A DNA stretch of 64,000 nt from Escherichia coli (lineage in GTDB: Bacteria; Pseudomonadota; Gammaproteobacteria; Enterobacterales; Enterobacteriaceae), in the NCBI RefSeq assembly GCF_030013205.1, contig NZ_CP122648.1, one strand, 5' to 3'. A program made the translations under genes and the position numbers. Below, piece by piece: positions 60,783 to 60,802 of this stretch. How positions within the stretch are numbered: the stretch's first letter is position 1; every line of letters begins with the position of its first letter. A model generated the notes under the pieces. That model was not told where the DNA came from and made no database searches. It was given only the letters and a program-made list of their open reading frames with translations.

Positions 60783-60802
60783 TACTGTATATTCATTCAG
60801 GT
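60783..60802. promoter_or_regulatory. LexA box shared by divergent ssb and uvrA promoters
   Basis: TACTGTATATTCATTCAGGT (CTGT-N8-CAG SOS box) ~85 bp upstream of uvrA ATG. Confidence 0.85.

Follow-up and report, generated by a model that had tools for sequence, protein, structure and literature searches.

The question raised by this locus is whether a single LexA box, lying between the divergent genes ssb and uvrA, serves both of them and has stayed intact in a strain whose SSB protein carries a linker variant. An earlier note on the 64-kb stretch of DNA analyzed here (the window) had proposed that it does and that it has. Our analysis identifies the sequence, TACTGTATATTCATTCAGGT, as almost certainly the canonical uvrA/ssb SOS box of Escherichia coli, a moderate-affinity operator for the LexA dimer; no feature of the sequence speaks against this identification. 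The part of the proposal concerning ssb needed qualification.

Position and sequence of the LexA box

The sequence TACTGTATATTCATTCAGGT is found exactly, and in one copy, on the + strand of the window at positions 60783-60802. It lies in the ssb-uvrA intergenic control region, which ORF coordinates place at 60632-60885, thus confirming the 254-bp length given previously. On one side, the uvrA coding sequence (60886-63708, + strand) is intact and specifies 940 amino acids; on the other, ssb (60125-60631, - strand) specifies 168. The corresponding genes of strain ETEC4079 (see below) are annotated as uvrA (WP_000357740.1) and ssb1 (WP_096955297.1). RefSeq names the flanking genes ssb and uvrA and annotates no regulatory feature in the gap. 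The end of the box is separated from the uvrA ATG by 83 nt, which fits the approximate 85 bp reported before, and the box stands 152-171 nt from the ssb ATG, its far edge (171 nt) agreeing with the published "-170" position. At the far end of ssb, where this gene and yjcB converge, the sequence contains a strong terminator-like hairpin (60032-60056; 10-bp stem with six G-C pairs), with a T run after it on the + (yjcB) strand only.

The half-sites of the box, CTG (60785-60787) and CAG (60798-60800), are 10 nt apart. The left half, TACTGTAT, is perfect and the right half, ATTCAGGT, deviates, making a total of five mismatches over 20 bp relative to the perfect palindrome TACTGTATATATATACAGTA. As a consequence, a search of the window for the perfect palindrome with up to three mismatches returned no match and missed the box. 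Likewise, the pattern CTGT-N8-ACAG with one mismatch showed no enrichment in the window (21 found against 17.2 expected). Since such loose patterns were uninformative, a symmetrised matrix was derived from 18 LexA sites taken from the literature (PMC3009722, Table 4). The uvrA site is absent from that table and the scan is therefore an independent test. Scanning with a LexA matrix, a check named in the earlier note, gave the box 17.2 bits, the highest score of any 20-mer in the window and 5.5 bits above the next best (11.7 bits, followed by 11.2 bits). The value falls within the range of the 18 training sites (12.9-29.4 bits). A heterology-like index computed from the same sites was 9.2 in the forward and 8.5 in the reverse orientation, which places the box among the weaker of the training sites (0.3-9.3). 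The second-best score inside the 254-bp gap was only 3.6 bits, which justifies speaking of a single box. The CTG-N10-CAG triplets set in a 20-bp AT-rich imperfect palindrome, the matrix score and the predicted overlap with promoter elements (see below) are those of the gammaproteobacterial SOS box class (CTGT-N8-ACAG type).

Of the two runners-up, TATTGTTTTTCACGACAGTA (47042-47061, 11.7 bits) maps to the acs-nrfA region and GGCTGTTTTTTTATCCATTC (38136-38155, 11.2 bits) to the fdhF-yjcO region. In both, one of the CTG/CAG triplets is missing and the score falls short of every reference site; they are probably chance matches.

One may ask whether the box itself, lying in AT-rich promoter DNA, resembles the LexA consensus only by accident and is devoid of operator function. 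The number of mismatches to the perfect palindrome and the near-expected count of the loose core pattern are compatible with such an origin, as is the finding that 5 of 200 simulated 64-kb windows (first-order Markov) reached 17.2 bits somewhere along their length. However, the box dominates the real window by the 5.5-bit margin given above. The probability of a score this high arising inside the 254-bp gap is roughly 1e-4. The data presented in the following sections make a chance origin extremely improbable.

Identity with the K-12 operator and variation within E. coli

Base for base, the box is the uvrA/ssb site of K-12 MG1655. This upholds the view that we are dealing with a known SOS operator, intact in this strain, and it counts against a chance match, the K-12 site having been studied experimentally (PMC9505508). 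Descriptions of the operator go back to 1983 (Brandsma et al. 1983 and 1985; Fernandez de Henestrosa et al. 2000; cited in PMC9505508). The same motif is listed upstream of a UV-induced uvrA transcript in Table 7 of PMC3009722, and PMC4132739 cites Sancar et al. 1982 by title. Two differences from K-12 were seen across the gap: a substitution (T60772; A in K-12) and the lengthening of a poly-A run near ssb by one residue. The interval between 60773 and the uvrA ATG is the same in the two sequences, box and uvrA core promoter included, and the distances to both start codons are the same.

The poly-A run (60646-60653; a T run on the ssb strand) immediately precedes the Shine-Dalgarno sequence of ssb. 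It has eight residues in the window and in strain 7/2 and seven in K-12, and its length also differs in the divergent strain 14EC007. It is thus a length-variable homopolymer adjoining a ribosome-binding site.

Among the 5426 complete E. coli genomes, 5425 contain the 254-bp gap, with identities of 91.7-100%. The exactness of the box was assessed with a 30-nt query placed in such a way that only an exact run of at least 28 nt comprising the full box could seed an alignment. Exact runs of 28-30 nt were obtained in 5391 of the 5426 genomes; as this count is a lower bound, at least 99.4% of them have an unaltered box, a degree of constancy that again argues against fortuitous resemblance. Some difference within the 50 bp surrounding the box is present in about 14% of the genomes. 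In four sampled variants of this 50-bp segment, the substitutions fell directly outside the 20-mer, at 60775 and 60803. Even in the most divergent E. coli gap (91.7% identity), the interval 60773-60831 is unchanged. Among the sampled variants, C60775T was seen in strain 2013C-3264, and C60803T, carried by strains SF-088, DFS.1 and E03, converts a candidate -35 motif of the distal ssb promoter (see below) from TTGACC to TTAACC.

A rare ssb allele beside the operator

The variation in the ssb linker reported in the earlier note is real. The predicted SSB protein has 168 amino acids as opposed to 178 in K-12, where ssb is full-length; the 10 residues QPQGGWGQPQ are missing from the disordered linker. 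The deletion is in-frame, removes 30 nt and lies between two direct repeats of 11 nt, CAGCCGCAGGG. It maps at 60212-60241 of the window, in codons around residue 130, with the junction at about 60230-60241. A 40-nt query, designed to seed only across the junction, detected it in 1 of the 5426 complete E. coli genomes, that of strain ETEC4079 (pig faeces, Belgium). Over the 3-kb stretch compared (58715-61754 of the window), ETEC4079 is 100% identical to the window. An 80-nt junction query was abandoned since it could not separate deleted from full-length ssb, the BLAST pieces being joined. The closest other genomes, K_EC180 and 7/2, carry the full-length allele. In a larger collection, the exact 168-aa protein was found on 80 contigs, named E. 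coli and E. albertii. Taken together, the single junction among complete genomes and the 80 contigs indicate that the allele is rare but recurrent. The operator, at least 150 nt away from the coding sequence, is unaffected by it.

The window does not reach lexA, which by K-12 coordinates would follow about 13 kb after its end; the gene occurs in 5425 of the 5426 complete E. coli genomes. In ETEC4079, the position where lexA would be expected from K-12 spacing (NZ_CP122643.1, 4705500-4711500) is occupied by genes for prophage tail and capsid proteins, including pseudogenes. A prophage thus separates uvrA from lexA in the ETEC4079 lineage.

Promoters in the control region

Promoter elements and start sites in this strain were inferred from sequence. 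A relaxed scan of the + strand gave as best candidate for the uvrA promoter a -35 motif, TATTCA (60790-60795), located inside the box, followed after a 17-nt spacer by an extended -10 motif, TGtCATAAT (60810-60818). Use of this promoter would start transcription near 60824-60825 and place the box at about -41 to -22. Because TATTCA matches the consensus at only three of six positions, the uvrA promoter was not called by a stricter built-in scan. The predicted position of the -35 motif inside the box is consistent with PMC9505508, in which the same box, assigned a heterology index of 6.98 and located about 170 nt from ssb, is said to overlap the uvrA -35.

On the opposite strand, no plausible distal ssb promoter is clear of the box. 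One candidate is ATGACA/18/TATACA (60815-60810 and 60791-60786) and another is TTGACC/18/TGGAAT (60805-60800 and 60781-60776). Accordingly, the LexA-controlled distal ssb promoter would fall in the zone 60776-60815 (- strand). Far from the box, at 60666-60709 (- strand), the relaxed hexamer scan identified putative proximal ssb promoters, presumably LexA-independent: a -10 motif TACAAT with TG (60685-60680), and a -10 motif TACACT (60671-60666) paired with a -35 motif TTGGTA (60695-60690). This block is partly conserved in the alignment of species described in the next section.

Conservation of the box across species

An unbiased sample of uvrA loci across species was gathered with a degenerate pattern for the first 13 uvrA codons, a selection independent of any LexA site. 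The search retrieved 120 loci, 113 of which were usable (at least 200 nt of upstream sequence). A box scoring 10 bits or more was present within 300 nt of the uvrA ATG in 84 of the 113 loci; shuffled upstream regions averaged -1.6 bits. A divergent ssb gene was found within 1.5 kb in 61 loci. All 61 carried a box reaching 10 bits, in most cases 74-92 nt ahead of the uvrA start codon. The distance between ssb and uvrA is 214-334 bp in 59 of these species and 452 and 467 bp in the remaining two. With its 254-bp gap and one LexA box, the window belongs to this class of divergent ssb-uvrA pairs sharing an operator.

In every one of the 61 boxes the CTG-N10-CAG frame is invariant. These triplets are fixed while the flanking intergenic positions drift. 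Conservation, together with the published evidence for LexA-dependent expression (see below), effectively refutes the idea of a chance match.

Alignment of the window with 59 gaps from other species revealed two sharply conserved blocks: the box and the sequence TTTGTGTCATAAT (60806-60818), in which conservation of the TG and CATAAT elements is at least 90%. Conservation extends to the ribosome-binding regions of ssb and uvrA. Within E. coli, the extended -10 motif TGtCATAAT is invariant in the sampled variants.

Conservation of the box could also reflect selection for promoter sequence or for the site of another regulator, such as ArcA, with LexA binding being secondary. An ArcA site has indeed been placed in the same intergenic region (legend to Figure 1 of PMC9505508) and, since the box overlaps predicted promoter hexamers of both genes, conservation alone cannot separate these constraints. 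The pattern of conservation, however, speaks for LexA. The strictest positions are the LexA contact triplets CTG and CAG with their 10-nt spacing, rather than a -35-like hexamer; positions 11-12 of the box, which fall within the -35-like hexamer, vary. Furthermore, Vibrionales boxes such as TACTGTTTTTTTATCCAGTA (loci L022, L101 and L107) have a quite different center and yet retain the same CTG-N10-CAG frame, 63-76 nt upstream of uvrA. We therefore rejected the promoter or ArcA explanation, which we regard as very unlikely.

The Vibrionales loci differ from the window in having no divergent ssb within 1.5 kb and in carrying boxes much nearer to consensus (up to 25.6 bits). The arrangement in Salmonella enterica Typhimurium (PMC8072944), although from a different species, resembles that of the window: the two genes are divergent and share one box (HI 6.99) about 80 nt from uvrA, and both are induced by DNA damage.

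Regulation of uvrA and ssb

If the sequence and conservation of the box are those of a genuine operator, to what extent does it serve each gene? The LexA dependence of both is taken here from work on the identical K-12 sequence and would be expected to hold in the present strain by analogy. For uvrA, the claim stands in full: the box is described as repressing this gene directly (PMC9505508), and we regard its effect as direct and strong. For ssb, the claim holds in part only. Of the three ssb promoters, LexA can repress just the most distal one (PMC9505508, citing Brandsma 1985), making the control weak, partial and conditional.

The published data on ssb point in two directions. In RT-qPCR experiments, induction of both ssb and uvrA by UV and gamma rays was LexA-dependent and was abolished in a lexA3 background; in addition, ssb was overexpressed in a mutant constitutively induced for SOS (PMC9505508). 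In Salmonella, uvrA was induced 11.2-fold and ssb, by nalidixic acid, 9.6-fold (PMC8072944). On the other hand, basal ssb expression during growth was the same in wild type and in the non-inducible lexA3 mutant, and no ssb induction was seen in three microarray studies and in several protein assays from the 1980s, as summarized in PMC9505508. The Salmonella study, for its part, classes ssb among genes with LexA-independent basal heterogeneity.

These latter observations raise the possibility that the box is, in effect, an operator for uvrA only, that ssb is physiologically constitutive and that the sharing simply follows from the divergent gene order, with no selected regulatory link behind it. 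The restriction of repression to one promoter out of three fits with such a scheme, and so does the geometry of the region, the box being about twice as far from the ssb ATG as from that of uvrA. One of the candidate ssb -35 motifs, TTGACC (60805-60800), is poorly conserved: the base at 60803 is found in about 10% of species and is changed within E. coli by C60803T. Finally, Vibrio and other organisms in which no divergent ssb is present still have a box upstream of uvrA. The loss of ssb induction in lexA3, its overexpression in the SOS-constitutive mutant and the response of the Salmonella gene are at odds with an operator confined to uvrA. The occurrence of the box in all 61 species with a divergent ssb might be held against it too, but this would be equally expected from control of uvrA alone. 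On balance, we consider a uvrA-only operator unlikely, albeit a serious contender, and favor unequal control of both genes.

According to the interpretation favored here, in undamaged cells LexA would sit on the operator, and the same bound dimer would also blanket the distal, divergently oriented ssb promoter. Upon DNA damage, RecA filaments would promote LexA self-cleavage and the operator would empty. Expression of uvrA would then rise a few-fold, and ssb would gain transcription from its distal promoter, added to the constitutive output of the two proximal promoters, which are outside LexA control. Occupancy of the site in this particular strain is presumed from its identity with K-12.

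Strength of the shared operator

A feature of the shared boxes is the base at position 15 (60797 in the window), which is T in 52 of the 61 species with a divergent ssb (among loci L008-L127) and is A or C, never T, in the 18 reference LexA sites. Boxes are also weaker on average where ssb is divergent, with a mean score of 16.8 bits as compared to 21.5 bits where no divergent ssb is present (17 boxed loci, mostly Vibrionales), although this comparison is confounded by phylogeny, setting Enterobacterales against Vibrionales and Alteromonadales. Both observations fit the notion that the operator is kept weak, which would also be consistent with the moderate heterology index in the literature. 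Tentatively, selection might hold the shared operator at a deliberately sub-optimal affinity, a proposal that we consider doubtful. A weak box could result from the constraint of serving two overlapping promoters, or from a need for high basal levels of UvrA and SSB. Alternatively, the contrast in box strength may be no more than a matter of lineage inheritance.

Significance

The box is a textbook operator, already known and unchanged in this strain, and its identification matters little beyond annotation: the strain keeps the normal SOS wiring of uvrA, hence of nucleotide-excision repair, along with an inducible ssb promoter, despite its short SSB linker. Two by-products of the analysis are worth recording. 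One is the linker deletion in the ssb gene beside the operator, a rare allele. The other is the species-wide footprint of the control region, in which the LexA box and the extended -10 motif of uvrA stand out as the two conserved blocks.
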